From the NCBI GenBank assembly GCA_021802545.1, contig JAJZRS010000001.1, positions 30,822 through 94,821 on the forward strand: a stretch of 64,000 bases of DNA, read 5' to 3'. Within the stretch, counting starts at the first letter, position 1. The number at the start of each line of letters is the position of its first letter. A model generated the notes under the pieces. That model worked only from the letters and a program-made list of their open reading frames with translations. It did no database searches and was not told where the DNA came from. Below are positions 4,523 through 29,847 of this stretch, piece by piece. The translations under genes and the position numbers were made by a program. This DNA is from Pseudomonadota bacterium. GTDB taxonomy: Bacteria > Pseudomonadota > Gammaproteobacteria > Burkholderiales > JABEVD01.

Positions 4523-4525
4523 GCA

Positions 4526-5050: not shown

Positions 5051-5125
5051 GGGTTTCCTGTGCGAGAGGCGCGTTCAGTAGATGGGGTTTAAGCTACCAC
5101 ACATTCTGTTCAAATTCAAAAACTG

Positions 5126-10047: not shown

Positions 10048-10126
10048 TAAAAGATTAAACAGTTATAATCGGTCCAACTACAAATTGCGCTGTCCATCTT
10101 CTGGGCGGCGAGCTAGACAGCGGCGC

Positions 10127-13100: not shown

Positions 13101-13630
13101 AGCTCAGAAAATGGAACCGGGCAGGGCTCGACATCGGGGTCAGCATCAATATTTCGGCCTACCACCTCGAATCGAAAGGCTTCGTTGACATGCTGAAGAA
13201 GAAGCTCGACCTGTACCCGGATGTACATGCGAGCAGCATCCAGATCGAGATTCTGGAAACGGCCGCCCTTGCCGATGTGGCCATTGTTTCGGGCGTCATC
13301 GAGGCATGCAGAAAGTTCGGCGTGGGGTTCGCGCTGGACGATTTCGGAACCGGGTATTCTTCACTTGCCTATCTGAGCCGCCTGCCCATCGATTCGCTCA
13401 AGATCGACCAGTCTTTCGTCAGGGGCATGTTGAACGACAAGGGGGATCTCGCCATCGTTCAGGGCATCGTTGCGCTCGCCAGCGCATTCGAACGGCAAAC
13501 CATCGCTGAAGGCATCGAGTCGGATGCGCATTATGCTATGCTCGTTAAAATAGGATGCGATGCTGGGCAGGGCTACGGCATCGCCCGGCCGATGCCTGCA
13601 GAAGAACTGACGAACTGGAGGATGAAATGA
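10127..13630 (+). CDS. CHASE-TM-PAS-PAS-PAS-GGDEF-EAL signalling protein (diguanylate cyclase/phosphodiesterase)
   Basis: ATG at 10127; the listed ORF starts at a TTG at 10085. Periplasmic CHASE-like block (YPGIQGIGYSLVV, IVYLEPFDWRNQRAFGYDMYSEP). Three PAS-like units each end in RDITERKR- or RDVTESRR-type linkers. GGDEF site is RLGGDEFVVLL. EAL site is GAEALLRW...DDFGTGYSSL. Confidence 0.9.
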   Translation: MDQNSSPSDTYPDAASESTSHYGVFLPYLVLMLSLAATFLVWTVESRVVNRDARDYFDFRADDAVLQMEGRLRLYEQALRGAQALFLSSGSVSRDEFKSYVLGLNLNAVYPGIQGIGYSLVVKPLDLKKHIESIRRQGFPEYAVKPQGVRDLYSAIVYLEPFDWRNQRAFGYDMYSEPTRRKAMETARDTGKMTMSGKVVLVQETKKDVQSGFLMYLPIYKKGMPHETLAERRANIAGWVYSVFRMGDLMHGVYKDRNDEIDIHVYDGKEMDEKSIMYDLEPGFPARSVFTTVKDLTVAGHEWTIWIGSRPQMEARFNSNQPFWIAGGGTLISLLLALVTWMQVNGRRRAARLAVELNQDLIESRKALQNENEKNLALLHNASDGIHILDEAGNIIEASDSFCSMLGYSREEVIGMNVSQWDAGFTDSAMLLAAVRKQFESPVRSQFETLHRRKNGTVFEVEVSGYPLELEGRQVLFNSSRDITERKRLEKQLIERESLFHAIFDQAPNAIELIDPETLCFIEVNPAACRMLGYPYDEFVSMRLVDTQVDLSEEALKSAVRKIEASGSITLENRHRCKNGEILDVEITSKMLDLPGRRLLVGVWRDVTESRRAERAMRVTSSVFDTSQEGILITDADNVILEVNPAFSSITGYSREEVIGKKPSVLSSGRQDKSFYEEMWRILNEKDAWRGEIWNRKKSGEVYAELLSISIIRDEDGKTLRHVGVFADINDLKRHEAELSRIAHYDALTGIPNRALLADRMKQAIAQTKRDHNLMAVCYLDLDGFKAVNDTMGHEAGDEVLISVAERIKGTIRGGDTVARLGGDEFVVLLLGLEKGEECVATLGRLLEAISIPFEIKGKVFALGASIGVSIYPLDDEDADTLMRHADQAMYQAKQSGKNRFDIYDPSLDLRARDHREFMKSVRQAIDNEEFELYYQPKINLRTRRMVGAEALLRWHHPERGLLSPAEFLYLVENTELDIEIGEWVVETALAQLRKWNRAGLDIGVSINISAYHLESKGFVDMLKKKLDLYPDVHASSIQIEILETAALADVAIVSGVIEACRKFGVGFALDDFGTGYSSLAYLSRLPIDSLKIDQSFVRGMLNDKGDLAIVQGIVALASAFERQTIAEGIESDAHYAMLVKIGCDAGQGYGIARPMPAEELTNWRMK

Positions 13631-14457: not shown

Positions 14458-16716
14458 TCATTTCGATTCCATCACCCATACGCCGTCCCAGTCCTCGGGG
14501 GGAGGCGAGGCTTTCAGCATTTCGCAGCGATGCAGATAGAGCTTGGAAAGCTTGTCTTCAGCGTTCAATGACAGGGCCTGGTTGAAGAGCTCCATTGCCT
14601 GATCCCACTTCTTCTGGCGGTATTTCGCCAGCCCGTCCCTGAAGAAAGAGAGCACTTCAACGATATTCGGAAAGGTATGCTCGGAATGGTAGTCCAGGAT
14701 CTCGTAGACCGCGACGGGCTTGGTCTTGCCCTTCACGACCACGAGGTCGGCTTCCCTGCTTCTATAGGTGCCCTTGAGCTTTCTGAAGGTGCCTTCGCTC
14801 ACCAGTATCCTTGCGCCGTATTGCTTGCATGCGGATTCCAGGCGCGCTGCGAGGTTCACGCCGTCCCCGATGATGGTGTAGTCCATGCGCTTTTTCGAGC
14901 CGATGTTTCCCGATACGACGAAATCGGTATTGAGGCCGATGCCGATGTCGACGGGCATCTTGCCTTCCGCGCGGCGCACTTCGTTCCATGAAAAGAGCGA
15001 CTTCAGCATCTCGATCGCCGTCCTCACCGCCCTGTCCTCCTCGTCGCCCTTGGCCTCCGGAATGCCGAACACGGCCATGATGGCGTCCCCGATGAACTTG
15101 TCGAGCATCCCGCCTTCGTTCTGGATGCAATCCACCATCAGGGTGAAATATTCGTTGAGCAGGGACACCGTGGCCTGGGCGCCGAGCTGTTCGGTGACCG
15201 TCGTGAAGCCGCGCACGTCGGAAAAGAGGACGGTGCATTCGACACTCTGTCCCCCCAGCAGTTCTCCGCCCTGAGCGACCACGCGATCTGCAAGGGAGGG
15301 GTCCATGTAGCGCGCCATGGTCGACTTCAATCGCTTCTCGGAGCTGATGTCCTCGATCACCAGCATCGAGCCCATGCGCTTCTTTTCATTGCTCACCAGG
15401 GGCTGGACGGTCAGGTTGACGGAAAGCGTTTCGCCTTCCACGTCGATGTTGGCATCCATGGTCACTTCGGGCTTTTGCGACTCGGCCACCGCCTTGATCT
15501 TTTCGGCCACCCAGGCATTCTTTTCAGAGAAGAATTCGCCCACTTCCCTGTTCAGGATGCGGTCAGGGGAAACCCTGAGTATCTCGAGTCCGGCCGAATT
15601 GCAGGTGACGATCTTTTCGTTCTCGTCGAGCGTGATGAGGCCGTTCGTCATGTTCTCGAGCATCGCCTCGTTGTAGTTCTTCATGTTGTGGACATCGGCG
15701 AAAAGCTTGGCGTTCTCGAGCGCGATCGAAACCTGGGCGGTGAAGGCTTTCAGCCTGGCCTCGTCTTCCGAGGTGAAAGGGCCGCCGCGCTTGTTGAGCA
15801 CCTGGGTGACGCCGATGATCTTGCCGCTCTTGTTGACGACGGGAACGCAGAGAATGGAACGGGTGAAATAGCCCGTTTTCTTGTCGAAAGCGGGATTGAA
15901 GCGCAGGTCGGCATAGGCATGGGGGATGTTGACCGTCTTGCCCGAGGTGAAGACAGCGCCTGCGATGCCGAGATGGTTGGGGAGCCTGATCTGCATGGCG
16001 TCCAGCCCCTGTCCGACTTCTGACCAGAGCTGGTTCGTTTTCTCGTCGTTGAGGAAAAGGGTGGAGCGCTCGGCGTTCAGCATGCTGGTCGCCTCCCCCA
16101 TCACCTTCTGAAGCAGGGAGCCGAGCTGGATGTCGGCCGTGACTTCGGAGACGATATTGACGAATTCCATTTCCTGTTTGCGCAGTTTCTGCATGCGCTC
16201 GATGAACTGGGCGCTCAGCAGGGCCAGCGAACACTGGGCGACCATGTCTTCGAGCAGCGCCTGATCTTCATCGCCGAAATGGCCGGTTTTCTTGTTGAGG
16301 GTTTGCGCGACGCCGATGATCTCTCCCTTGTGGGAAGTGATCGGCACGCAGAGGATGTTCCGGGTGACGAATCCCGTCTGCTCGTCCACGCTCCGGTTGA
16401 AGCGCGGATCCGAATAGGCGTCGAGGATGATCTGGCTTTGTCCTGTCGAGAAGACATAGCCGGCAACGCCGGCATTGTTGGCCATGCGGATTTCGCGCAG
16501 GAAATTCCCCTGGGCCACGCGCGAATAGAGCTCGTTCGTCTCGGGATCGTTGAGGAAGAGAGTGCTTCTTTCCGTATCGAGCTCGATGGTGGTGTATTCG
16601 ACCAGGGTGCGCAGCACGTCGTCGAGGGTGTCCTGCTCGCCGATCCTCCTGGAAAGGGCGAGCAGCATTTCGGCGCGCATCAGGCGCTCTTTCTGAGTAT
16701 GTTTGGCTGCCGTCAT
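14458..16716 (-). CDS. GAF-GAF-PAS-class III adenylate/guanylate cyclase with C-terminal TPR-like tail
   Basis: Two GAF-like units (ERSTLFLND...TNELYS / ERSTLFLNDEKTNQLWS). A PAS-like segment is present. The cyclase catalytic block is VLFSDVRGFTTVTE...KFIGDAIMAVFG...GNIGS...DYTIIGDGVNLAARLE. The C-terminal helical repeat is AMELFNQALSLNAEDKLSKLY. Confidence 0.85.
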   Translation of the reverse strand: MTAAKHTQKERLMRAEMLLALSRRIGEQDTLDDVLRTLVEYTTIELDTERSTLFLNDPETNELYSRVAQGNFLREIRMANNAGVAGYVFSTGQSQIILDAYSDPRFNRSVDEQTGFVTRNILCVPITSHKGEIIGVAQTLNKKTGHFGDEDQALLEDMVAQCSLALLSAQFIERMQKLRKQEMEFVNIVSEVTADIQLGSLLQKVMGEATSMLNAERSTLFLNDEKTNQLWSEVGQGLDAMQIRLPNHLGIAGAVFTSGKTVNIPHAYADLRFNPAFDKKTGYFTRSILCVPVVNKSGKIIGVTQVLNKRGGPFTSEDEARLKAFTAQVSIALENAKLFADVHNMKNYNEAMLENMTNGLITLDENEKIVTCNSAGLEILRVSPDRILNREVGEFFSEKNAWVAEKIKAVAESQKPEVTMDANIDVEGETLSVNLTVQPLVSNEKKRMGSMLVIEDISSEKRLKSTMARYMDPSLADRVVAQGGELLGGQSVECTVLFSDVRGFTTVTEQLGAQATVSLLNEYFTLMVDCIQNEGGMLDKFIGDAIMAVFGIPEAKGDEEDRAVRTAIEMLKSLFSWNEVRRAEGKMPVDIGIGLNTDFVVSGNIGSKKRMDYTIIGDGVNLAARLESACKQYGARILVSEGTFRKLKGTYRSREADLVVVKGKTKPVAVYEILDYHSEHTFPNIVEVLSFFRDGLAKYRQKKWDQAMELFNQALSLNAEDKLSKLYLHRCEMLKASPPPEDWDGVWVMESK

Positions 16717-17123
16717 TTTTCTTCCAGCCTCTGACGCAGCAGGACGACCGTTTGCTTCAGCTGGGCGATCTCGTCCTGTGCGTTCTTCTTTTCCTGGGCG
16801 ACTGCGTTTTCCTGATCGATTTTCGCCAGTTCAAGGGCGTTCCTCAATGAAACGGCCGTCTCCTTGATCTGGTTCATTTCGTCATGGAAAAGCGAGGCGG
16901 CCTTCTGGATCATGCTCTCCCTGTCGGCGCGTTCTTCCTCGAGCTTGTCGCGCAATTCGGTGATCGTCGATTTGAGATGCAGGGTTTCCTGGGCGTGCTC
17001 CGTGCGCAGAACCTGAATCGCATGTTCGTGCTCGATGACGAGCTGTTCCAGCCTGTTGCGCAAGGCGAATACGGTTTGCTGCAGTTGCCTGATCTCGGCT
17101 TCCTGAAGCGCTTCATTTTCCAA
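16713..17123 (-). CDS. Coiled-coil protein of unknown function, upstream of and overlapping the cyclase gene
   Basis: Heptad-rich, Glu/Gln/Leu-rich sequence with a 4-nt overlap with the cyclase start. The ORF is open up to 17291 but no upstream ATG has an RBS. TTG at 17123 is preceded by AGGAG at 8 nt and leaves a normal divergent intergenic region. The start is uncertain. Confidence 0.45.
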   Translation of the reverse strand: MENEALQEAEIRQLQQTVFALRNRLEQLVIEHEHAIQVLRTEHAQETLHLKSTITELRDKLEEERADRESMIQKAASLFHDEMNQIKETAVSLRNALELAKIDQENAVAQEKKNAQDEIAQLKQTVVLLRQRLEEK

Positions 17124-17253
17124 TCTCGAGGCTCCTGTGAGGCCGCATTTGGAATCATTGCTTTCCCCAGGGGTCGATTCTAAGGTACATCCATGCGACT
17201 CACAAGGGGGCGGGGCATTGCATCGCCCCTTGCCCATGCCTAGAATAGGAAAC

Positions 17254-17736
17254 ATGGAAGAATTGGCTACGCTCGAAGAGATCATGAACATGCTGCTGGA
17301 ATGCGAAATGTTTTCCAGCTTCGACAGATTCGAAATAGGCTCGATTGCCGCCTATTTCAATTATGTCGAGGTCAAAAAGGGCGAAGAGGTGTTCAAGGAA
17401 GGCGATCCGGGCACGTTCATGTGCATCGTCCATACCGGAACGGTATCCATATTCAAGAGCGACCTCGAGGGGAACGTCTTCGAAATCGCGAAGCTGCCGT
17501 CAGGACGGCCTTTCGGGGAGATGGCCCTGCTTGACGGAGAGCGGCGTTCGGCAACCTGCAAGGCGGCCACGGATTGCGGCTTGCTGACGCTTTCGAAAGA
17601 TGCGCTCGACAGCATGGTCGACGAATCGCCGGCGACCGCGGCGAGGGTGGTGCGCGCGGTGGCTATTTCGCTTTCGAGGCGGCTGCGCATGGCCGACGGC
17701 CAGCTGATCGACCGCAGAAGACGCAACGCTTACTGA
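17254..17736 (+). CDS. Stand-alone cyclic-nucleotide-binding (cNMP/CAP-effector type) domain protein
   Basis: AGGAAA lies before the ATG at 17254. The cNMP-binding signature is FKEGDPGTFMCIVHTG......GRPFGEMALLDGERRSATCKA. No DNA-binding domain follows. Confidence 0.8.
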   Translation: MEELATLEEIMNMLLECEMFSSFDRFEIGSIAAYFNYVEVKKGEEVFKEGDPGTFMCIVHTGTVSIFKSDLEGNVFEIAKLPSGRPFGEMALLDGERRSATCKAATDCGLLTLSKDALDSMVDESPATAARVVRAVAISLSRRLRMADGQLIDRRRRNAY

Positions 17737-18101: not shown

Positions 18102-18119
18102 TGGTGCGCAATAGGAATC
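18102..18119 (-). repeat. Decayed copy of the tRNA-Thr 3' end (old att remnant)
   Basis: TGGTGCGCAATAGGAATC versus the tRNA 3' end TGGTGCCGGCAATAGGAATC: 18 matching nt with one 2-nt gap, in the same orientation as the other two copies. Confidence 0.55.
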
Positions 18120-18321
18120 TTGTGGAAATTGCAGCTACCTGTATAAAAACAACAAAAGCCGATTCGGTTTTTGCCATATACCCCCAGAAATACCCCCATC
18201 TTTGAAAGCCCCCGGAAAATCCGCGGTTCGGTTTCCAGTTGAATCATCCGGTCATTTTGTTGCATCCATGGGCATTCTGAAAAATTGCAGCAACAATATT
18301 CATTGAATCGGGAGCGATTCT

Positions 18322-18341
18322 GTAAACCCTGGTTGTAAACC
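18322..18341 (+). repeat. Direct repeat GTAAACC-N6-GTAAACC near the left end of island A
   Basis: GTAAACCCTGGTTGTAAACC. A closely related GTAACCCTGGCGTAACCC sits at 22217-22234 near the right end. Confidence 0.45.
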
Positions 18342-18818
18342 ATTTTGTCAACTCCGGAATTTTGCCACCGACTGGCGAAATGATGCGGCCCGAATTGCCC
18401 TCGACAAAATGCTCCGGGAAGGACCCGCTGGAGCTATCCATGCAGGGATCATCGATTTTTCTGCGGGACGGGCGGGACAGTCTTCTGCAAGCCGCATCTG
18501 GCCGCCTTCTTGCTCGTCCTGAAAGCGCATTTCAACGGCGGGACGCGCAGGGGCAGCCGGGACGCTTTCTCTTGCGGCCGGGCTCAAGGAGGGCACCGAA
18601 ATCATTCCGCTGAAGACCAATTGCAGTACCGCAATTGAAAACAATTCCCCAATTCATATGCAAAACCATTCACTTTTTGCAGATTTTTGCATACGGGATG
18701 GGCGTCGGGTCGATCGAGAAATTCAATATCAACCTGAGTTTATTATCTGAATAATAAGAAGAAAACTATTGAAATCAAAATAAGATCAATGGATTGATGT
18801 TGTTTTGCATGAATAGCA

Positions 18819-19547
18819 TCAATTCGCTGAGCTTGAGCTGCTCGACGTAATCGCCCTGAGGCGTTCAATTACAATATGCACCCTGGCCTGGCTGCCCGGG
18901 TCGCCCGGCATGTGTCCGGGCAAAGCCTCGAGAAATCTGTCATCCTTCAGCAAATCAGCCAAACGCTGCCCGAGATGAATTCTCAGTTTTTCATCGCAGT
19001 GCCTCACTTCTTCCACGATTTCAGGCCTGCCATCGAGAACTGCCACGATATCTTCCATGTCATGGCTCATCATGTAGTCGCCTTTTCCTCTCCCAGCGAA
19101 CGCTGCAAGTTTGGTCGCAAGGAAATAGGGTGCCGAGACCATCCGGATCTTTCTTCCCGAAGGCAATTCCTTCCATTGGGCCGCCTTGAATGCGGGTTGG
19201 TACCATTCGTTGCCGAAACCCAGGATCTCCGGATGGGTCGGCATCACATCGAGCAGTATTTCCCCTGAGCGCCAGCGGCAAATCGGCGCATCCGAACTCA
19301 TGTCTTCGCTGAATCCTGATTCCCGAAGCCGCTTTGACAGGCGCTGGTAATCCACCAGGGAAGCCACCTCGGAAATGGCATCCACGTCTTTTGTGGCGCG
19401 CACAGGCGGAGCAAGCGGATCCGTGATCAGGAGCCCGGTCGCGCAGCCGCCGAGAAACACGAGTTCATTTGCCCATTCGCCGAGTCTGGCAATGGCGAGT
19501 TCCATGATCTCGAGATTGGGATTTGCCGATCTACGCATATTTCGCAA
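18819..19547 (-). CDS. Nucleotidyltransferase-fold protein, AbiEii-like toxin candidate
   Basis: NTase signature (FLGGCATGLL...RATKDVDAI) and a later K..A...R......D.EDI block (ATKLAAFAGRGKGDYMMSHDMEDIVAVL) resemble AbiEii/DUF1814-type proteins. 17-nt overlap with the upstream gene. Confidence 0.5.
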   Translation of the reverse strand: MRNMRRSANPNLEIMELAIARLGEWANELVFLGGCATGLLITDPLAPPVRATKDVDAISEVASLVDYQRLSKRLRESGFSEDMSSDAPICRWRSGEILLDVMPTHPEILGFGNEWYQPAFKAAQWKELPSGRKIRMVSAPYFLATKLAAFAGRGKGDYMMSHDMEDIVAVLDGRPEIVEEVRHCDEKLRIHLGQRLADLLKDDRFLEALPGHMPGDPGSQARVHIVIERLRAITSSSSSSAN

Positions 19548-20049
19548 ACCGATCCTTCAGCTCCTTGATCGCCAATTCACGTTCACGCGCCCTTCCACCC
19601 CTTATGGCATCCACCAGGGCGAGCAGTTCGTAAAGGGTGGGGTCAATGCGCGAAGCCTGCGGAGCGAACTTGTACAGAGGCGAGAAGGCCACGCCCCGCG
19701 CGGAGCCTTCCGGGTCAGGCCAGACAGGAGGCGGCTCGGCGGATTCGGCAAAGTGCCGATCCAGGGGGGGCGCTGCGTAGGAAGTGGGGATGCCTCTGGT
19801 CAACTGCCCGAGTTCCGGCACGAAGACATAACGCAAGCCGTGCACGATGAATTCCTGGAGATTGCGGATATTCGGCGCGATGATGTCTTCCTTTTTCACG
19901 GCGATCTGCGCGGCAAGCGCGCGCCGCACGGCTGAATGAAGCTGCGATGGGCTCATCCCCAGGCTCACGGCCAGCGAGGCATAGGACCAGGGCTGTTGTC
20001 CCATGGCCACCAGCTTGAGCATCACCAGAATGTCCTGCGGCTTCAGCAT
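19531..20049 (-). CDS. Putative winged-helix partner protein (AbiEi-like antitoxin/regulator candidate)
   Basis: The N-terminus MLKPQDILVMLKLVAMGQQPWSYASLAVSLGMSPSQLHSAVRRAL looks like a wHTH. It is first in a two-gene overlapping unit with the NTase. No family assignment is possible by eye. Confidence 0.4.
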   Translation of the reverse strand: MLKPQDILVMLKLVAMGQQPWSYASLAVSLGMSPSQLHSAVRRALAAQIAVKKEDIIAPNIRNLQEFIVHGLRYVFVPELGQLTRGIPTSYAAPPLDRHFAESAEPPPVWPDPEGSARGVAFSPLYKFAPQASRIDPTLYELLALVDAIRGGRARERELAIKELKDRFAKYA

Positions 20050-20060
20050 TCCACATCCAT

Positions 20061-20077
20061 ATTCTAGATTCTAGAAT
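20061..20077. promoter_or_regulatory. Near-perfect 17-bp palindrome just upstream of the AbiEi-like gene (operator candidate)
   Basis: ATTCTAGATTCTAGAAT. The reverse complement differs only at the two central positions. It also reads as tandem TTCTAGA. It lies 11 nt upstream of the start codon at 20049. Confidence 0.4.
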
Positions 20078-20132
20078 TGAGAATACATTGCGGGAATCAG
20101 CAAGTCAAACTGCCCGACGTAAGCGTCTCTAT

Positions 20133-20471
20133 TCAGCTGGGATTCTGATCGAGCAAGGTCTTGATGGCATCTTCAAGTTCTTGAAGATGCTTGTCGATCA
20201 CGTCAGAAACCGTCAGCGGATCTATGTCGCCCAGATAATTGTGCACGAGAATATTGCGAAAACCACTGATATCTCGCCAGGGAATACCGGGAAAGGCGGA
20301 TTTTTGGTCGTCCGGGAGCAATTGGGTGGCTTCCGAAAGGGTTTGCAGGTTTCGCAGCGCTGCATCGTACAGAATTTCATCCTTGGCAATTTCGCCGCGC
20401 ATCTGAATGCGCCTGATCTTGGCGATGGCATCCAGGATGTGCAGCGCGTAGGGCTGCCAAGGTTTACTCAT
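20133..20471 (-). CDS. hepT: HepT-like (DUF86) RNase toxin
   Basis: The R-x4-H-x-Y motif is present as RNILVHNY. Size is 112 aa. 4-nt overlap with the upstream MNT gene. Confidence 0.8.
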   Translation of the reverse strand: MSKPWQPYALHILDAIAKIRRIQMRGEIAKDEILYDAALRNLQTLSEATQLLPDDQKSAFPGIPWRDISGFRNILVHNYLGDIDPLTVSDVIDKHLQELEDAIKTLLDQNPS

Positions 20472-20770
20472 AATTCCACGGCTTCGCCGATCACTTGCTC
20501 GCGAATATGCCGATTGAGTTCGTGCTCAGGTACCAGCTCCACTTTCCGGTGAAGCAGATTTTCGAGACCTGCGGCAAGTGGCATGCGCTGAGCGAAAAGA
20601 TCGTAACCGCGTGGGAGATCAACCAGAATATCCACGTCGCTGTCCGCGCGCTCCTCTCCGCGCGCAACGGAACCGAACACGCGGATGTGCTTCGCACCGT
20701 ACTGGCGCGCCAAGGCTTCGATCTGATTTCTGTTTCGCCTCAACTCATCAAGCAGCATTCCTGTCCCCAT
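20468..20770 (-). CDS. mntA: MNT-type minimal nucleotidyltransferase antitoxin (MntA)
   Basis: GSVARGEERADSDVDILVD NTase signature. Met at 20770 has AAGGTGG upstream. The ORF is open to a TTG at 20794, and another Met lies at 20758. Confidence 0.8.
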   Translation of the reverse strand: MGTGMLLDELRRNRNQIEALARQYGAKHIRVFGSVARGEERADSDVDILVDLPRGYDLFAQRMPLAAGLENLLHRKVELVPEHELNRHIREQVIGEAVEL

Positions 20771-20852
20771 GCTCAGCTGACCACCTTGATGCAATTATAC
20801 TTCTCGTCTGCATTGCGCTGTTGGATTTTTCTTTAATCGTATCATGGTGGAA

Positions 20853-20969
20853 TCAGAATCCGAGCATGCAGCTGGCATTCAACGCGACGAAAACCTGCAG
20901 CACCTTGATCCTGCTCTCGGGTGACTCAGCCCCCGAATAGTCGATGCCGATATAGCGGTCGAATTTCAT
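20853..20969 (-). pseudogene. 38-codon remnant of a gene with an MKFDRYIGIDYSGAE N-terminus
   Basis: Hand translation gives MKFDRYIGIDYSGAESPESRIKVLQVFVALNASCMLGF*. The IGIDYSGA opening is familiar to me as the N-terminus of much longer hypothetical proteins, and here it stops after 38 codons. Confidence 0.3.
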
Positions 20970-21117
20970 CAATCCTTCTTCGCAGTGCATGAAAGCGATA
21001 TTTCAAGCCTGGAGCCGATACAAGTCAACATTTCATGAAGGATCTCGTGCATCACAGATAATCACAGTTGCGGCGCTCAGGCGGCAGGGGTAGGATTCTG
21101 AAAAAAAGAAGAAAAAC

Positions 21118-22026
21118 ATGGGGGAAGACGAACAGATCCGCGCAGCAGCCTTCGAGCATGTCCGGCGTCTTGGCGAAACCATAACGTCCAACGACATCAG
21201 GGCAGGGTTCATGTTCAATGGCGTGCGGATACCGCTGGTCAATCCTCAGCGCGGAATTTTCAAGCCGCGACAGATGCAGCATCTGCTCTCCATCCGGACA
21301 GTTTTCCCCAAGCCCGGTGCAAGGGTTTGGTACGACGATCAGAAGCAAGTCCATCGGCAGATTTTTGAAGGGGAAGAGAGCGTCGATTACGCCTTCATGG
21401 GCGACAATCCCGATGCAGCTGAAAACCGCTGGCTGCGAGAGGCAATGGAAATGCGGAAGCCCTTGATCTATTTTCTCGGTGTTTCCCCAGGGAATTACCA
21501 GGCAATCATGCCGACCTATGTGGCGGGATGGGATGCAATGTCTCTGAAGGCCCAGGTGACATTTGGGTTGCCTAACGAGACCAAACTCGAAATTCCGGCG
21601 AGCGCATTGGAGAGAAGATATGCGCTGCGGGAAATCAAGCAAAGACTCCACCAGGCGTCATTCAGGGAAGCCGTCATCTCGGCATACAATGGACGCTGCG
21701 CTTTATCGGGTTTTCCTGAACCACTGCTTCTTGATGCAGCGCATATCATTTCAGACAAGGACGAAAATTTTGGCCAGCCGGTGGTCCCAAACGGCTTGCC
21801 GCTTTCCAAGATACATCACGCGGCTTTCGATTCCCATTTGATTGGCATTGACCCGGATTTCAAGATACATGTCTCGAAGCGGCTGCTGGATCTGAACGAT
21901 GGCCCGATGCTTGAAGCATTGAAGCAGCTTCACCATCGTTCTATCCACCTTCCCGGACGAATGAAGGATTATCCGGATCGGTCACGCCTCGAAAGACGAT
22001 TTCAGGAATTCAGACAAGGGATGTGA
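21118..22026 (+). CDS. HNH endonuclease (HNH_2 / COG3440-like predicted restriction enzyme) with an unassigned ~190-aa N-terminal domain
   Basis: C-terminal block: YNGRCALSGFPEPLLLDAAHIISDKDENFGQPVVPNGLPLSKIHHAAFDSHLIGIDPD (Cys...AAHI...NG..L....H..FD). The N-terminal domain (GVRIPLVNPQRGIFKP...) is not identifiable by eye. Confidence 0.7.
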   Translation: MGEDEQIRAAAFEHVRRLGETITSNDIRAGFMFNGVRIPLVNPQRGIFKPRQMQHLLSIRTVFPKPGARVWYDDQKQVHRQIFEGEESVDYAFMGDNPDAAENRWLREAMEMRKPLIYFLGVSPGNYQAIMPTYVAGWDAMSLKAQVTFGLPNETKLEIPASALERRYALREIKQRLHQASFREAVISAYNGRCALSGFPEPLLLDAAHIISDKDENFGQPVVPNGLPLSKIHHAAFDSHLIGIDPDFKIHVSKRLLDLNDGPMLEALKQLHHRSIHLPGRMKDYPDRSRLERRFQEFRQGM

Positions 22027-22216
22027 AAGAACATGAATTGCCATAACGTCGGGCAGCAAGTTGCCAGTAACCTGCCGATCAATCTGGGATAGCCTTGAAC
22101 GGTATCCACCAAGCTACTATTGCTACTCGTTTTAACAATCCATCCATGTTAGAGAGTATATCAAGGTAAGTTTAGGGAAATTCGAACCACGAAAGTGCTC
22201 GGGTTTTTCAATTCGT

Positions 22217-22234
22217 GTAACCCTGGCGTAACCC
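22217..22234 (+). repeat. Direct repeat GTAACCC-N4-GTAACCC near the right end of island A
   Basis: GTAACCCTGGCGTAACCC, 47 nt from the 45-bp att repeat. It is the partner of the repeat at 18322-18341. Confidence 0.45.
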
Positions 22235-22280
22235 AGTTAGAAACTGAAAAGGCGATTTGTTGTACAACTAATTGATTTAT

Positions 22281-22325
22281 TGGTGCCGGCAATAGGAATC
22301 GAACCCACGACCTTCTGATTACAAA
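22281..22325 (-). repeat. Perfect 45-bp direct repeat of the tRNA-Thr 3' end (att site between the two islands)
   Basis: TGGTGCCGGCAATAGGAATCGAACCCACGACCTTCTGATTACAAA is identical to 29772-29816. Sequence diverges immediately after, so this is not a second tRNA gene. Confidence 0.9.
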
Positions 22326-22400
22326 CCCTTTGGGGCCTAAAAAATATATGTTTTAAATCAATAGGTAATTTCTTAACTTATTGAAACATAATAATGGTAA

Positions 22401-22440
22401 GTCCTCTTGTGTCCTGTTGTGTCCTCTTATGCCCTATTGG
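22401..22440 (+). repeat. Four tandem 10-bp units phased at one helical turn
   Basis: GTCCTCTTGT GTCCTGTTGT GTCCTCTTAT GCCCTATTGG, lying in the AT-rich arm just inside the left end of island B. Confidence 0.6.
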
Positions 22441-22442
22441 TT

Positions 22443-22463
22443 TGTAGCCTATGTGTAGCCTAG
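22443..22463 (+). repeat. 21-bp motif TGTAGCCTA-N2-TGTAGCCTAG (left copy)
   Basis: TGTAGCCTATGTGTAGCCTAG. A 19/21 identical copy in the same orientation sits at 29697-29717, inside the other end of island B. Confidence 0.65.
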
Positions 22464-22677
22464 AAAATTGGGGACATCGAACCTAGAACACCCCGAAAGC
22501 ATAAAGCTATTCAATTTTGCCACGACAATTGTCTTATTGGCCGATCATCGGCCTTTGCTAACTGAGAAATGGTATGCCTTTTGGGGGCAGGTCAGACCCG
22601 CCATTCAGCGTTTGTTGGCCCTGAACAGCCACGTCGTCATCTGAAGAAATCGGAAAATGGTGGTCTGTCCCGGGTCC

Positions 22678-24099
22678 TTACATAAACATCCGATAGTCGT
22701 AGACATCGTTTACGATGTCGGGTGATTGCTTCACCACTTCAGCAAAGACCTGCGAATACACGAGCGTTACTGGCAGCGTCTTGTATAGTGTGTTGTTGTT
22801 CCAGTCGACCTTTGTGAGGGCAAGAGTGCTCGCGCATGTCGCATGCCATCCCCCAACACCTGAGAAACGGCGCAGCATTATCGGTTTGGGTAGAGGTTTC
22901 AGCGGTGCTTCCTTGAAAACCGGCTGATTGGGTTTCTCCTGATTGATACCATGAACGGCTCCTTGCGTCCAAAGCAGGCACTCGTTTTCTGTAAGTGGCT
23001 GGTAAAGGCCGCGATCAACAGGATATCCTGCAGGAGCCGAGTTCTTGTTCCATTTGTTCGGTCCGTCAATTTTCAACCCATACCAATTGGTTCCGCGGAC
23101 GATCTGAACAAGCTCTATCTCCATCTTCGATCCGAAGGCATCGAACGCGCCTTGGATTTCATCCTCGGTGAAGCCTGTTGTCTTATGGACATAGATCTTT
23201 TTCGGCAAGCGCCCGTTGTGTGAGTTTTGATAAAGCAACAGGCTTTTCGATAACACTGACTGCATCTCTTGATACGTCAGGTATGGATTGCCTTTACGAT
23301 CTGTCGTGTACTCGCGCGTGTCGTAGGCAACAAACTCGAAGCCGGTACCATCGGGATCAAAGACCTGGCTGCAACAAGTACTGTATTCGGCACCATTCTC
23401 AAGCTTCTTGATGGCGTAGCTTAGTCCGATATAAGCCTCATCCTTGTCCCAGTCAGCGAGCTTCCAGGGAATTCCATTTGCCTTTGCATAGAGGGCAACG
23501 CTCAATCCCCATGCGACCTGCGCACGACACGTGCGTTCGAACATAGTGTCGTTGATGATCTGGATTGGAATGTTGAGCGGTGCGACCTTCGCTTTGATCC
23601 TGTCGTGAAGATTGAAGCCTTCGTATAAATAGGCCGCCTTCCATGCAGCAGGCAGATGAACGATCAATACGTCAAACGAATGTGTGAGCTTCTGCAATGG
23701 AAGGATCGCCTGCAAGATCATGTCAGCTAGACCATTGCCATCCCTAGCAGCGGCCATGGTATTGCACTCATTCGGTGTGGGGACGCGCAGATTTTCCGTC
23801 GGCGGTACAAGCTGGGCCCGGAAGACCTTCTCAAACCCCTCATATGCAATGTAGTAGTTTGGAGCTTCACGTACCTGCAGTTTGTTCATCAATTCGCCGG
23901 CAAGCGCATCGAGCCTCGGAAGGAGATTGCTTGGCGGGTATGCAAGTCGGACCACTTTTGGCGCACCGATGTCGAGGCTATATGGGCCATAATCCACCAG
24001 ACCGCGTAACGGATGAGCGTGGGTCTTTCCACCCGCGAAGAGCAGATGCGGTTCCGGCAGAATGGAATTGGCAGGTAGCGCGTTTGGATCGTTAGACAT
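22678..24099 (-). CDS. Short prokaryotic Argonaute (MID-PIWI only, predicted catalytically inactive)
   Basis: 473 aa. MID/PIWI blocks: [54 protein letters not shown], and C-terminal YDYRMFM. The position of the first slicer Asp reads IGLSY. 8-nt overlap with the upstream SIR2-APAZ gene. Confidence 0.85.
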
Positions 24100-25873
24100 T
24101 TTTTCCGCTCCTCCTGCTGAACGCGGAGCGCATGCTGATTTGGAATTCCGCGGGATGTTCGGTGCCTTTGTACGCGATGATGTTCGCGTCCCCTTTCCCG
24201 ATGCCTCCGAGAAAAATCTCGATCCAAGCGCTCAGAATTTGGGAAGCTTGCTTGTTATATCGGCGTATTTTCTTATTGTAGAGAAAGTCGGTGGCTTCTT
24301 CGCGCATCTTGTATGGAGAAATCCAAACATCAGGTTGCAGCAGCAACCACAACTGTCCGTTCCGCTCCTCAACCTTCAGCGAAACGGCCTCTGCCCAATA
24401 GACATCTTTGAGGCCAGGAACCTGGCCGTTAACAACGCCGGGATGAAATTTGCCATTCACATCTTTCCAGGAAAGCGCGTCTCGCAAAGGTTTCAAAGCA
24501 TCGCTGTTGGCCTCCACATGGTAGGTGATGGCGTACCACGTCTTGCCCTGCTTACGCAGCAGGAGAGGTTTGTCAGCTACCAAGGCGGTCGCAACGGTTT
24601 GCTCCACCGTTGACTTCAAGTAAGTCGAAGCGTCGATTACACGAACAAGATCGTCGATCTCGAATGTCGAAATCGACTTAACCCGGTTCGGCTCGTAAAT
24701 CTTGGCAAGTTCCTTGCCGTCTCCCCAGAACAGGATGCGATCCGTGTAACAAACCGAGCAAGGAGGTTGCTTCTCGAACAAGACGTCTTTCAACTGTCTA
24801 ATGTCCAAAGTTCCGTCATAATCGATTGTGCCGCAGGTACTAGGAAAACCTGTGATTCGGAGCGCGTTCGTGCGAAGAATGGGATACGCAGTGCCAACAG
24901 GAGGTAGTGGAATCTTCATTTGCTCAACCGTCGCGCTCCTAACTTTTCCGTCTACGTCCGGATTCTTCTCGGCGACCAATCGCCAGATTTTCGCCAGCAT
25001 CTCATCGAAGGTACCGGTTTCGACGATCCCACCTTTAACGCCCTTACTGTGTGCATAGTCCATCAGCTCACGTACAGGCTTTTCGACGCGAGAAATCCGC
25101 GTAACGGTCCAATACAAACCGTGTGGAAAAGAGTTGTTCTGTTCGATGGCCTCACGGAACATCGCCATCACGTTGCCGTCGCGCCCGCTGTATCCGCTGA
25201 CGACCATCCCGAAGCGAGTAGCGGATGCCACAAGACATTTCTGAATTTCACGATCATTATGGAGCAGATCCTCTGTGAGATTCTTCACGGCCTGATACCG
25301 AAAGTCGCCGTGAACCTTCGCGTAAAACGGAAACCTCTCGGCGTTCAATGCCTCAAGCGCGGCGTAGGAACCTTCAAGATGGAAGGTCGTTAGATTCTTA
25401 CCTGTGATTGAGGCGTAAGCAGATTCAACAACCTCGTCGAAATTGGTTGTGAAGATGATCCGTGCAAGACCGAGGTGGAGGAGTGCAGCTAGCGCGCGGT
25501 GCCCGATCGTTGAGGAAATCTTATCTGTCGAAAGCGCTTTATTGAGATACTTCTGCTGTGCTGCATAGTCTTTCCCGAACAGCAACTCGAAATAGAAGGA
25601 ATATTCGGCCGGATCCCCAAGGGGCGGAAAGCTTCTGCTGTCCATGTACGTCTGTATGCGGGCTTGGACAGATCGATTGCTGACGTCATGTGCAACAACA
25701 TCTTGATTTTCCTGGGTACAGTAGTAACGAAGCTTAAGATCCCAAGTTAGGTCTGTTGCAGTCGGAAGGCCCGAACTGCGTGACGCTCCAGCTCCGAGAA
25801 ACCACATTAGTTGCTTCCCTGTTTGGGCGACAAGCTGGCGGAAGTCGATTTCCTTGATCTCTGGCATCGGCAT
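24092..25873 (-). CDS. SIR2-APAZ protein (NADase effector partner of short pAgo)
   Basis: N-terminal SIR2-type motifs: [38 protein letters not shown]-terminal ~300 aa of APAZ-like size follows. The ATG at 25873 has AAGAGGTG 9 nt upstream. The ORF is open to a GTG at 25885. Confidence 0.8.
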
Positions 25874-25994
25874 TGTGAGCTGCACCTCTTATAACTGCCC
25901 AATTAAATATAAACCCACAGGCTCCACAAAACCTACCAGTTATTCCGGTGTCGATAGGTTCGCTTATGGTCAGTAGCGATCATTCTAGCCCGTT

Positions 25995-26061
25995 GGCATC
26001 AGGCCGCAAAGGCCGATGCCCAGGCCTCGCCCGAGGCCGAAGAAGTTGTGTACTGTTACAC
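25995..26061. other. Cluster of GC-rich stem-loops in the divergent intergenic region (candidate structured RNA or protein-binding element)
   Basis: Hairpin 1: GGCATC-a-GGCC-gcaaa-GGCC-GATGCC (25995-26020). Hairpin 2: GGCCTCG-cc-CGAGGCC (26023-26038). Hairpin 3 is weaker: GTGTA-ctgt-TACAC (26048-26061). The surrounding island DNA is AT-rich. Confidence 0.4.
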
Positions 26062-26113
26062 GACCGCATTGGTGTACATTCCAGGCATTTAGGTTGTAAA
26101 GTACGTTTTGATT

Positions 26114-26142
26114 TTGGAACGATTCAGCCCAAATGTTAATAA
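26114..26142 (+). promoter_or_regulatory. Sigma70-like promoter candidate for the RT-nitrilase gene
   Basis: TTGGAA-N17-TAATAA, ending 35 nt upstream of the ATG at 26177. This is a pattern match only. Confidence 0.3.
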
Positions 26143-26176
26143 GCGGCAAGATAATTGTACAAATATCCAAGGATTG

Positions 26177-29100
26177 ATGATGGGTTATCAGGAAAACTTC
26201 TCCGGCTGGAATCAGATAACACTAGAAGATTTGGTGGTGGCTTACCGCAAAGCTAAGGCGGACTGTTTTTTTGAAAACACCTTTCCTACTGCCATCAAGT
26301 TTGCCGAATACGAACAAGATCTGCTTTATAATTTAAAAAAACTATTGTCTAGCTTGCATACTGAACAAGGGTTTTCCGATAATGATAAATATTTAGGTGA
26401 CATCCGCTTGTTGCCTAAGAAGCTGTCAATCAAAGCAAAGCCAGATGCAGTCAATGGGCACGTTCACTTTTCGAATCCTGCGCGATCCTTTGAGCATCTG
26501 ACCCACCAGAATGACCTGATTCCGGAATTTCGTGTTATCGGTGATTTTCCTGTAGAAACTCATATTCTCTCGGCTTTGTGGATCAATACGGTTGGGCACA
26601 AATTCGATGAACGTCTTGAAGACAGTTGCTATGGAGCGCGCCTCAAGCGGGTTCGTAATGATGAACTGCTTGGCAAAGACGCACCCAAACCATTCCATAT
26701 CAGTGCGATTGGCTCATTTGCCCCGTATTTTCAGCCATACCAGAAATGGCGCAATGATGGTTTGAATGCAATTCGAAGTGAGCTGGAGAAAGGGCACGAT
26801 GTCATTGCTGTGTCACTGGATTTGAAAAGCTATTACCACTTGATTGATCCGATGGCGCTTGCCTCAGATGGGCTACGTGAAGCGCTTGGACTTGAGCTGA
26901 CCGCCCAGGAGAAGTCTTTTACCCTGGAACTGGCTAATTTTCTTTGCCGCTGGTCGAGTCGAGCCAGCGAGTTTGCCGGAAAAACAATCATGGGTAGGAA
27001 GTCTATTCCTGGTGGTCTGGTCATTGGGCTAACTGCAAGCCGAATCATTTCTAATGCCTTGCTGCACCACTGGGACTGCATGATCAAGGAAAAGATCGGA
27101 CCTATCCACTATGGGCGTTATGTGGACGATATGTTTTTAGTGTTGCGTGATACGGGAGCCATTACGTGTAGCGAAGACTTTATGGTTTTTTTGCAGGAAC
27201 GTATGGGTAAAGAGTGCGTTATTCGTAAAAAAAGCGTCAATTCGAGCGCCGTCAATCAAGATCAACTATGGCAGATACAACAAGGTGAATCGATACAAGG
27301 CAAGAGCCAAATTAAGCTACAAGGGGATAAACAAAAACTCTTTGTGTTACAGGGACGAGCGGGGTTGGACTTACTCGACAGTATAGAGCGAGAGATTGCT
27401 GCGCTTTCCAGTGAGCACCGGTTAATGCCTTCACCGGACCAACTGGAGGACTCTACTGCGGCCAAAGTGCTTTCGGCAGCCGGAAGCGTGGGCGAAAATG
27501 CCGATAACTTGCGCCGTGCTGATGGTCTCACTATTCGCCGCTTGAGTTGGGCTTTGCAGTTGCGCCATGTAGAGACACTGGCCCGTGATTTACCGCCCCA
27601 TGAGTGGAAAAGTCAGCGTGAAGAATTTTACCAGTTTGCCCATAACCATATTCTCAGACCTGACACGCTATTTGCTCATTTCACATATTTACCTCGCTTG
27701 CTAGGTTTCGCCATCAGCATGAATGAGTGGAGGCAGGCTGAGCAGATTGTTGTAGCCACTTATGAGTCTCTTGCCATGCTGGAAGCTGAAGTCCGGCCAC
27801 GAGCAAATATCGCCATAAATGGTGTTGAATCCAAATCAGGCGAGGATATTTGGCGTTATATAAAAGGGACGTTGACTTGGTTGTTTATCGATGCTGCAAC
27901 ACGCTATTACGATCCGGACAAGTTACTTACTGATCGGCACGGGCGTAAAGAGCTACGGCTTGCGGAGTTATTTTTAAATGGTATATGGGGTGAGCTGGTT
28001 GATTTCGAGAACCTTCTTAATTTCCGATTCGGGTCAGAAGAGTTTTACCAAAAGGCTCCACTTGTAGCTATGGCCGATCTGGCCAAAGAGCCGTACAAGC
28101 GTATTTTGAAACGCAAAGCAGCAAGCGCATTGTTGAGTCAAGATAATAGGAGGCAAGAGAGTCGAATTCTCAAACTATTGGAATCGACAGAACTCCTCCA
28201 TACAGAAGATCTCAAGCGTTTTTTGCAGTCGACTCGTGTCAGTCGACTTGCAGCTGTTGCAGTGGGACATCGTAGTGGGGAAAGTTATTTGCCTTATCTG
28301 TTTCCAACGCGCCCACTTAGCGCTGCGGAAATTTCTGAATTGGCGCCAGAATGCGTAGGGCTGCCACAAATGGATGGTAAGGCTTGTGAAGATATGCCTG
28401 CTGTAATATGGGCCAAATACACTCAGGCGATACGTGGCGTTTGGGTGAAGCCGACCTTGTTGGCAGCAGATCAAGAAGAGGACGTGAAAGGAAAGAAAAA
28501 GAGAGCGAGCGCAACAAAGTTGCTGAGCATTGGTACAGACAAGAAGCGCAGGATAATTGTCGCTCTGTCCAACCTTAAAACTGAGGATGACGATTGGGCT
28601 GCCTCGGCTTGTGATAAGTCGAACCTTTCCAAGGATCGATATAGCCGTATATCAGACTTGGTAAACCAGACCTTGCGCTTAAATCCGAAACCAGATTACA
28701 TGCTGTTGCCTGAATTGTCTTTGCCGTTGCAATGGGTGGACAGTATTGCCTCTCGATTGACCGTTGCTGGTATCAGCCTAATAGCCGGTACGGAATATCG
28801 ACATTTCGGTAGAGATGAAATACTCAGCGAGGCATGCCTGGTACTAACGGATAATAGGCTGGGTTTTCCTGCAGCTATCAAGATATGGCAACCGAAACTT
28901 CAGCCGGGGGTGCGTGAAGATCAGCGACTGACTGATACATTTGGTAAGCGTTGGGCGTTCTCTGAGCTGACGGGTAAGAAAATCAAGCCAGTGTACGTTC
29001 ATAATGGGACTCATTTTGGCGTTATGGTTTGCTCCGAATTGCAGAACAGTAAAGCGCGAATCAAGTTCCAGGGTAAAGTGGATGCATTGATGGTGCTAAG

Positions 29101-29419
29101 CTGGAATCAGGATTTGGATACCTTTGCTGCGCTTATCGAATCGACTGCTTTGGATCTCCATGCATACACCATACTGGTAAATAATCGCGCATACGGAGAT
29201 AGCCGAGTAAGGTCTCCCGCAAAAGAAGTTTTTATGCGCGACTTGGCTCGTGTGCGTGGAGGGAATAATGATTTTGTAATAGCAGCCACGTTGGATATTG
29301 ATACATTGCGTGCCTTCCAAAGCCGTGCAAAGCGCTGGCCGCAAGAGGGAGATAAGTTTAAGCCGCTGCCGGAGGATTTTAGTTTGGCGGATGGGCGACA
29401 GAAGCTACCACCGAAATGA
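26177..29419 (+). CDS. Reverse transcriptase fused to a C-terminal nitrilase (C-N hydrolase)-like domain; DRT type 1-like (UG/Abi class RT)
   Basis: The start is taken at MMGYQ (AAGGA just upstream); the ORF is open from 26108. RT motifs: VIAVSLDLKSYYHLID (A), GGLVIGLTASRIISNALL (B), HYGRYVDDMFLVL (C, YVDD). A long helical middle region follows. The C-terminal ~300 aa has a Glu/Lys/Cys context typical of nitrilase-fold enzymes (YMLLPELSLP ... FGVMVCSELQN). Confidence 0.8.
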   Translation: MMGYQENFSGWNQITLEDLVVAYRKAKADCFFENTFPTAIKFAEYEQDLLYNLKKLLSSLHTEQGFSDNDKYLGDIRLLPKKLSIKAKPDAVNGHVHFSNPARSFEHLTHQNDLIPEFRVIGDFPVETHILSALWINTVGHKFDERLEDSCYGARLKRVRNDELLGKDAPKPFHISAIGSFAPYFQPYQKWRNDGLNAIRSELEKGHDVIAVSLDLKSYYHLIDPMALASDGLREALGLELTAQEKSFTLELANFLCRWSSRASEFAGKTIMGRKSIPGGLVIGLTASRIISNALLHHWDCMIKEKIGPIHYGRYVDDMFLVLRDTGAITCSEDFMVFLQERMGKECVIRKKSVNSSAVNQDQLWQIQQGESIQGKSQIKLQGDKQKLFVLQGRAGLDLLDSIEREIAALSSEHRLMPSPDQLEDSTAAKVLSAAGSVGENADNLRRADGLTIRRLSWALQLRHVETLARDLPPHEWKSQREEFYQFAHNHILRPDTLFAHFTYLPRLLGFAISMNEWRQAEQIVVATYESLAMLEAEVRPRANIAINGVESKSGEDIWRYIKGTLTWLFIDAATRYYDPDKLLTDRHGRKELRLAELFLNGIWGELVDFENLLNFRFGSEEFYQKAPLVAMADLAKEPYKRILKRKAASALLSQDNRRQESRILKLLESTELLHTEDLKRFLQSTRVSRLAAVAVGHRSGESYLPYLFPTRPLSAAEISELAPECVGLPQMDGKACEDMPAVIWAKYTQAIRGVWVKPTLLAADQEEDVKGKKKRASATKLLSIGTDKKRRIIVALSNLKTEDDDWAASACDKSNLSKDRYSRISDLVNQTLRLNPKPDYMLLPELSLPLQWVDSIASRLTVAGISLIAGTEYRHFGRDEILSEACLVLTDNRLGFPAAIKIWQPKLQPGVREDQRLTDTFGKRWAFSELTGKKIKPVYVHNGTHFGVMVCSELQNSKARIKFQGKVDALMVLSWNQDLDTFAALIESTALDLHAYTILVNNRAYGDSRVRSPAKEVFMRDLARVRGGNNDFVIAATLDIDTLRAFQSRAKRWPQEGDKFKPLPEDFSLADGRQKLPPK

Positions 29420-29696
29420 GATCGCCTAAATATCCATCACATTCTCAGCAACACGACGAACCTAGTTTAGAGGATGTCGAGGGCGTCCGGAAATTTACGT
29501 AAAACGGCCCTTGTCGCCTGAGTTCCGATGGTTCGTAAAGACCGAAGCCCGGTCATCGGCCGAAGCGGTCGATCTGAACATCCTGATAAGGCGACTGCCA
29601 GCACAAATGTTCGCCCCCCTTTTTTGTGAGGCTTGAGTGAAAAAGCGGCGAAGAGGCAATCCGAGCTACTGACTGATGTGAACTCACTTAGAAAAT

Positions 29697-29717
29697 GTAG
29701 CCTAGTTGTAGCCTAGG
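29697..29717 (+). repeat. 21-bp motif TGTAGCCTA-N2-TGTAGCCTAG (right copy)
   Basis: TGTAGCCTAGTTGTAGCCTAG, 55 nt from the tRNA 3' end. It is the partner of 22443-22463. Confidence 0.65.
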
Positions 29718-29771
29718 CGCATTTTGGGCGGGGTCAATGGCCTACAAATTTATCATAAGCCATTGTTTTTG

Positions 29772-29847
29772 TGGTGCCGGCAATAGGAATCGAACCCACG
29801 ACCTTCTGATTACAAATCAGCTGCTCTACCAACTGAGCTATGCCGGC
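29772..29847 (-). tRNA. tRNA-Thr (anticodon UGU), with encoded CCA
   Basis: The reverse complement folds by hand as GCCGGCA-TA-GCTC-AGTTGGTA-GAGC-A-GCTGA-TTTGTAA-TCAGA-AGGTC-GTGGG-TTCGATT-CCTAT-TGCCGGC-ACCA. It is 76 nt with the anticodon loop TT-TGT-AA. Confidence 0.9.

Follow-up and report, generated by a model that had tools for sequence, protein, structure and literature searches.

What do the two overlapping minus-strand genes at positions 22,678 to 25,873 of a 64,000-nucleotide (nt) stretch of contig JAJZRS010000001.1 (hereafter, the window) encode, and how did they come to lie there? An earlier note, made from the letters alone, had read them as a SIR2-APAZ gene followed by a short Argonaute gene, i.e., as a SPARSA-type, NAD-depleting defense system. 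Our analysis leaves us highly confident that the locus is an intact SPARSA system, composed of a Sir2-associated, split-gene short prokaryotic Argonaute (pAgo) and a co-transcribed Sir2-APAZ protein, and that it was acquired horizontally. The split-gene class of Sir2-associated short pAgos is called S1B in the literature, and the fused class S1A. Neither frame is interrupted, both have lengths typical of the family, and the Sir2-APAZ gene lies directly upstream of the pAgo gene on the same strand, in one operon (coordinates are collected in the table below). The gene boundaries and the 8-nt overlap given in the earlier note were confirmed in the sequence, and every protein motif that it quoted, including the C-terminal YDYRMFM, was found in the translations. 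Within the overlap, the upstream frame reads ...AAT GTC TAA, which is the Sir2-APAZ stop, and the downstream frame reads ATG TCT AA, which is the pAgo start. This arrangement implies that the two genes would share a single transcript, and translation of the two proteins is probably coupled across it; an 8-nt overlap also occurs in the homologous loci L022 and L027. The longest Sir2-APAZ frame opens with a GTG at 25885, but the alternative ATG at 25873 appears the likelier start, because a Shine-Dalgarno-like AAGAGG precedes it by 11 nt and homologues begin at the same Met; more specifically, proteins 90% (metagenomic) and 81% (Caballeronia) identical to this one are both called as 593 amino acids (aa) with that Met start.

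The first product was identified by matches over its entire length. Pfam SIR2_2 matched residues 143 to 268 (E = 3.8e-14), as expected from the SIR2-type motifs pointed out in the earlier note, and the PADLOC model Aga_SIR2-PNTD1-PNTD2 covered the whole protein (model positions 2 to 557 of 558; E = 2e-196). Likewise, the Sir2-APAZ chain of the Geobacter sulfurreducens system (GsSir2-APAZ; PDB 8in8_B/8JL0) aligned through residue 582 (E = 6.4e-199). Because the full-model PADLOC coverage and the GsSir2-APAZ alignment both reach the C-terminal ~300 residues, the assignment of this part to an APAZ domain, proposed in the earlier note on grounds of size, is right. The APAZ domain thus lies C-terminal to Sir2 within one polypeptide, and the N-terminal Sir2 NADase domain carries, in sequence, both the catalytic Asn and His and the NAD-binding Asp.

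The second product, described beforehand as a 473-aa Argonaute consisting of MID and PIWI only, was matched over model positions 3 to 457 of 457 by PADLOC pAgo_I (E = 1.6e-183), and its residues 3 to 473 aligned with the MID-PIWI chain of GsAgo (PDB 8in8_C/8Y80; E = 2.9e-226). The protein is therefore a pAgo of ~470 aa that contains MID and PIWI and lacks an N or PAZ domain. Eight PDB entries (8IN8, 8JKZ, 8JL0, 8K87, 8K88, 8Y7Z, 8Y80, and 8Y82) matched both proteins end to end; of these, 8JKZ/8JL0 and 8Y7Z/8Y80/8Y82 are the G. sulfurreducens SPARSA system, GsSir2/Ago (PMC11452484, PMC10781750). Of the profile searches that the earlier note had called for, those for SIR2_2, for pAgo (PADLOC pAgo_I), and for APAZ (PADLOC) were positive and that for Pfam Piwi was negative; the full-length PADLOC and PDB matches, with E values far below chance, place the pair in a known family, as had been claimed.

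Individual residues were mapped through HMMER alignments to the Gs chains, with residue roles taken from the published papers. All residues that are essential in GsSir2/Ago by mutation are conserved here. In Sir2-APAZ, these comprise the catalytic N142 and H186 (N144 and H188 in the numbering of the 593-aa protein), the NAD-binding D230 (D232), A26 and A37 of the cofactor loop, and the tetramer contacts Y168 and Q192. In the pAgo, they comprise K170 (K169) of the 5'-phosphate pocket, the guide-base contacts N184 and R190, the sensor-loop residues N272 and Y274 (N271 and Y273, present in 22/22 close homologues), and the target-end contacts N82, Y84, and Y359. Also kept are a further tetramer contact of Sir2, R296, and the other two pocket residues, H166 and Q181 (H165 and Q180). 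Across 35 diverse homologues, the K and Q of this pocket are invariant and the H is found in 31. GsAgo D164, a guide-base contact, is N here, as in the majority of the family (17 of 22 close homologues), and GsSir2-APAZ F532 is replaced by Y.

The earlier note had placed IGLSY at the first slicer Asp and, on this basis, had predicted a protein that binds guides without cleaving. The reference for this comparison was TtAgo, from plasmid pTT27, for which no more than 21 homologues were retrieved, all of them close relatives, so that a profile was possible, albeit of low diversity; it comprised 17 Thermus-type long pAgos. On the other side, an exhaustive representative search yielded 1090 proteins at E up to 0.001, of which 35 full-length short pAgos (23 to 86% identity) were aligned. 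When the 35-sequence profile was compared with the TtAgo family using hhalign (probability 98.7%, E = 2.2e-16), TtAgo D478 fell on S227 (within IGLSY, as anticipated), D546 on T307 (within IYVHKTTGF), and D660 on Q450. Two early hhalign runs with a shallow alignment (Neff 1.7) had given probabilities of 4 to 6% and had placed D478 on L233 versus S227; they are superseded. Since an acidic residue is missing from three of the four slicer positions, the PIWI domain is read as lacking an intact DEDX tetrad, which would preclude slicing; the earlier note had held that an intact tetrad would indicate a different class of pAgo, and none was found. GsAgo likewise lacks the tetrad, as judged by structural superposition (PMC11452484).

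The likeness to a Geobacter-type Sir2/Ago system, put forward in the earlier note, holds for the architecture and for the full-length alignment of both chains, but the closest characterized relative is a different one, namely CcSir2/Ago of Caballeronia cordobensis (Ago WP_053571899.1, Sir2 WP_053571900.1). The two systems are 86% (Ago) and 81% (Sir2-APAZ) identical, without internal gaps, so that ~14 to 19% of residues differ; gene order and the 8-nt overlap are the same, and the proteins measure 593 and 474 aa versus 593 and 473 aa here. CcSir2/Ago confers ~1000-fold protection against phage lambda and blocks pCDF, and its two proteins associate into an NAD+-bound heterodimer (Zaremba et al. 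2022). It differs from the present locus in its host, which is a Caballeronia rather than an uncultured Burkholderiales lineage, and in its context, which is chromosomal, beside TIR_2 and bestrophin-like genes, rather than on a tRNA-Thr island with a UG5 RT-nitrilase. GsSir2/Ago (PDB 8JKZ, 8JL0, 8Y7Z, 8Y80, 8Y82, and 8IN8) is more distant (phmmer 755 bits, in the range of homologues at 67 to 69% identity), and its genes overlap by 11 nt versus 8 nt here. Nevertheless, the present locus shares with it the catalytic N/H/D and the cofactor loop, as well as the 5'-phosphate pocket, sensor loop, and target-end contacts of the pAgo, and both have lost DEDX. GsSir2/Ago is an RNA-guided, single-stranded DNA-activated NADase that depends on tetramerization, and its heterodimer carries NAD+ (PMC11452484, PMC10781750).

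Several observations weigh against the SPARSA assignment or against an intact system. The pAgo matched neither a Piwi nor a MID family in Pfam (E up to 0.01), and NCBIfam gave only sub-threshold matches. With Pfam Piwi silent, it is PADLOC and the PDB that supply the profile evidence for this protein, and the missing matches are a limit of Pfam and NCBIfam rather than evidence against the assignment. In addition, the equivalent of the glutamate finger, TtAgo E512, is ambiguous: it is T265 in the 35-sequence alignment and N271 in the shallow runs, and the sensor-loop insertion in this region holds the acidic residues D260, E263, and D267. A class that is unreadable from Pfam alone, together with acidic residues in the sensor loop, is what might be seen if a slicing-competent pAgo, or a member of another class (e.g., SPARTA, SPARDA, or long-B), had been misread as SPARSA. 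However, the three slicer positions that could be placed read S, T, and Q, the partner carries Sir2 and neither a TIR nor a nuclease domain, and the Sir2-associated class leads the PADLOC and PDB matches by more than 70 orders of magnitude; we give such a misreading hardly any credence. Other points concern function. At the oligomer interface, GsSir2 N7 and E8 are replaced by I and D, and Q297 by L, and GsAgo H104 is N at a position that varies among the 22 close homologues. GsAgo N195, which contacts the second guide base, corresponds to Q194 in the MID domain (Q in 5 of 22 close homologues), and the guide 5'-end preference may differ accordingly. Moreover, the number of sites in a promoter scan did not exceed what chance or shuffled sequences give. 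The few interface residues that differ from GsSir2/Ago, and the failure to find an integrase on the island (see below), could mean that the island is decaying and that the operon on it is a remnant, preserved in sequence but no longer functional. In contrast to what decay would leave, both frames are open, full length, and free of gaps relative to a functional orthologue at the identities given above, none of the mutationally essential residues has been lost, and the overlap and the Shine-Dalgarno site are intact. We therefore judge loss of function to be highly improbable and retain the reading of the locus as an intact SPARSA system.

SPARSA activity of the locus is inferred from the tested orthologues, and nothing in the sequence hints at a departure from their mechanism. 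By this analogy, Sir2-APAZ and pAgo would form an obligate 1:1 heterodimer that carries NAD+, with APAZ standing in for the missing N and PAZ lobe. The MID pocket (H165, K169, and Q180) would grip the 5'-phosphate of small RNA guides derived from highly transcribed regions of the invader, and pairing of the guide with complementary single-stranded invader DNA would be sensed by the PIWI sensor loop (N271 and Y273). The sensor loop, along with release of the Sir2 domain, would then lead to a tetramer (a dimer of dimers), in which H188 of the Sir2 catalytic loop would be brought beside N144, switching on the NADase. Conversion of NAD+ to ADP-ribose and nicotinamide would deplete the cofactor and kill or arrest the infected cell, i.e., cause abortive infection.

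Two other groups share parts of this design. PgSir2-Ago and other fused Sir2-APAZ-pAgo proteins (S1A) have the same three modules, which are split into two overlapping genes here; accordingly, the PADLOC fused model PDLC02420 matched both proteins (E = 2.7e-84 and 5.7e-74), and fused representatives of ~1000 to 1060 aa occur among the pAgo homologues. SPARTA (TIR-APAZ plus short pAgo) likewise combines an inactive short pAgo with an APAZ partner and depletes NAD+ after guide/target binding and oligomerization, and its pAgo chains match the pAgo described here at E = 1e-19 to 1e-23. Its effector, however, is TIR rather than Sir2, and SPARSA is without SPARTA's inhibitory C-terminal peptide (PMC11452484).

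As to how the operon reached this genome, it lies on a 7.45-kb island (22326 to 29771) with a GC content of 0.49 versus 0.57 in the flanks, which holds the Sir2/Ago operon and a divergent open reading frame of 1103 aa and nothing else. The right border is an intact tRNA-Thr gene, the 3' end of which, together with ~10 nt more, recurs as a displaced copy at the left border; two matches of this kind were obtained in 0 of 100 shuffles. In a congener (genome G006, contig C32, positions 1739 to 1852; locus L015), the tRNA-Thr is joined directly to a homologue of window positions 22212 to 22270, which immediately precede the displaced tRNA fragment; this arrangement is the one expected for a site without this island. 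At the protein level, the G006 region beside tRNA-Thr showed no resemblance to the window's island A past ~60 nt. Searches for the pAgo were negative in all eight congeners and in the 52 other families covered, and the pAgo_I family was found in only 2 of 401 genomes sampled from the order, so that pAgos are otherwise rare in the host lineage. Judged by MurA, the host belongs among uncultured Burkholderiales, its nearest named relatives being Sulfuricella and Sulfurimicrobium at ~74 to 75%. In contrast, among 2694 pAgo homologues at E up to 1e-20 within the candidates scored, the closest are 92% (metagenome), 91% (Pandoraea), 86% (C. cordobensis), and 85% (Bordetella) identical; a search for related loci with Sir2-APAZ as query returned only 4 loci and added nothing. 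Because the pAgo is 85 to 91% identical to Pandoraea, Caballeronia, and Bordetella proteins, lateral transfer is indicated. Low island GC, the tRNA 3'-end repeats, the G006 site, and the rarity of the pAgo in congeners and order together argue that the operon was acquired horizontally on an island predicted to have inserted at the tRNA-Thr 3' end.

The right flank (tRNA-Thr plus a GST gene) is conserved in seven of the eight congeners, often at contig ends. Beyond the tRNA-Thr, contigs break off (G001, G004, G006, and G008) or the DNA is unrelated to that of the window, as in L014 (G007, contig C12), which suggests that, throughout the genus, this tRNA-Thr is a hot spot of variation. Doublet motifs in direct orientation (TGTAGCCTAnnTGTAGCCTAG) occur a short way inside the two ends of the Sir2/Ago island, at 22443 to 22463 and 29696 to 29716. 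The end motifs of the island are TGTAGCCTA doublets together with the 3' end of tRNA-Thr. A related doublet, TGTAACCC..GTAACCC, stands at 22215 to 22235 and 18322 to 18341, the ends of the neighboring block, and beside the tRNA in G006; these doublets may be recombinase arm sites. A 25-nt fuzzy search detected no third copy of the tRNA end, whereas by eye alone an 18-nt degenerate piece is visible at 18102 to 18119 (TGGTGCGCAATAGGAATC), which, apart from a 2-nt deletion, is similar to nt 1 to 20 of the tRNA-Thr 3' repeat. This piece follows closely on a terminator hairpin, where the GC content changes, and may represent a third, degenerate att copy at the outer limit of a stacked island.

The divergent neighbor of the operon is a UG5-large RT-nitrilase, a fusion protein with a YVDD motif; its translation probably begins at an internal ATG, near 26177. 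This family is antiviral alone and has been named DRT11 (PMC13436386). The intergenic region between the Sir2-APAZ and RT-nitrilase genes presumably holds the operon promoter. In this region, the promoter and terminator scan gave sites no commoner than in shuffles, including a single, weak sigma-70-like site (26139 to 26111, minus strand) that is not above chance. The hairpins of the intergenic region could be an operator, a structure in the 5' untranslated region, or a leftover terminator.

Do the two gene units work together? They are the sole ones on the island, and they share a divergent, hairpin-bearing intergenic region, as might be expected if SPARSA and the RT-nitrilase were one cooperating system, linked, for example, by shared intergenic regulation or by RT products that feed the pAgo. 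Yet the intergenic RNA fold is only marginally better than that of shuffled sequences (z-score, -1.96), and an Rfam scan assigned the region to no family, its only match being the tRNA. A search of 400 other genomes of the order found the Sir2/RT junction in none of them, and the closest Sir2/Ago homologues have other neighbors: DISARM, IS110, and AlpA in Pandoraea, PRTase-CE in the metagenome, and the genes named above in Caballeronia. Moreover, CcSir2/Ago and DRT11 are each protective alone. We consider a cooperating system very unlikely, and given the missing junction and the unrelated neighbors of the homologues, the pairing looks incidental. No integrase-sized open reading frame was found inside the 7.45-kb interval. 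A broader proposal, that the island is a mobilizable cassette moved by a tRNA-Thr-specific integrase acting in trans, with SPARSA and the RT-nitrilase co-regulated from the shared intergenic region and acting together, strikes us as quite unlikely. In such joint action, for example, two abortive-infection triggers would cover each other's escape routes.

As an intact SPARSA system, the locus carries little mechanistic weight, because structures and functional tests of the family already exist and this copy lacks no feature known to be essential. It has modest value as a natural variant, at the stated distance from CcSir2/Ago and with Gln at the GsAgo N195 position, and as a clean case of defense-system travel: a two-system cassette bounded by tRNA-Thr repeats, in which no integrase was found, and a congener site without the island.

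Table. Positions of the features of the SPARSA locus and its surroundings in the window
Feature	Position	Strand	Remarks
Sir2-APAZ gene	24092..25873	-	593 aa from ATG 25873; N-terminal Sir2 NADase domain, linker, C-terminal APAZ
Short prokaryotic Argonaute (pAgo) gene	22678..24099	-	473 aa; MID and PIWI only, PIWI predicted to be catalytically dead
Gene overlap	24092..24099	-	8 nt, ATGTCTAA; read from the sequence
Shine-Dalgarno-like AAGAGG	25885..25890	-	11 nt upstream of ATG 25873; read in the sequence, putative function
Divergent intergenic region, Sir2-APAZ/RT-nitrilase	25874..26107		234 bp; GC-rich hairpins at ~25995-26061
UG5-large RT-nitrilase gene (DRT11-type)	26108..29419	+	PADLOC RT_UG5-nitrilase, E = 0, 1012 bits; 1103 aa; context, not part of SPARSA
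Island left border, displaced copy of tRNA-Thr 3' 45 nt plus ~10 nt	22271..22325		att-like direct repeat; 95% over 55 nt versus 29762-29816
Intact tRNA-Thr(UGU), island right border	29772..29847	-	Putative integration target; Rfam tRNA, 71 bits
PDC-M21B	18819-19547	-	Candidate defense gene
PDC-M21A	19531-20049	-	Candidate defense gene
PDC-S09	20468-20794	-	Candidate defense gene
HNH_2 nuclease	21118-22026	+	Candidate defense gene; HNH_2 match leaves N-terminal half uncovered

Further candidate defense genes, listed at the foot of the table, lie to the left of the island in a region with a GC content of 0.53 (18121 to 22270); they make up a second low-GC block, at 18819 to 22026, on the left side of the displaced tRNA fragment. 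Just outside the islands, at 14458 to 17736, a chromosomal gene for a GAF-GAF-PAS class III nucleotidyl cyclase (752 aa) adjoins one for a small protein that consists of a cNMP-binding domain only. Ordinary chromosomal content is found at 1412 to 6673 and 10085 to 13630, including cellulose biosynthesis genes (BcsC-like and BcsG) and a large PAS-GGDEF-EAL cyclic di-GMP phosphodiesterase.

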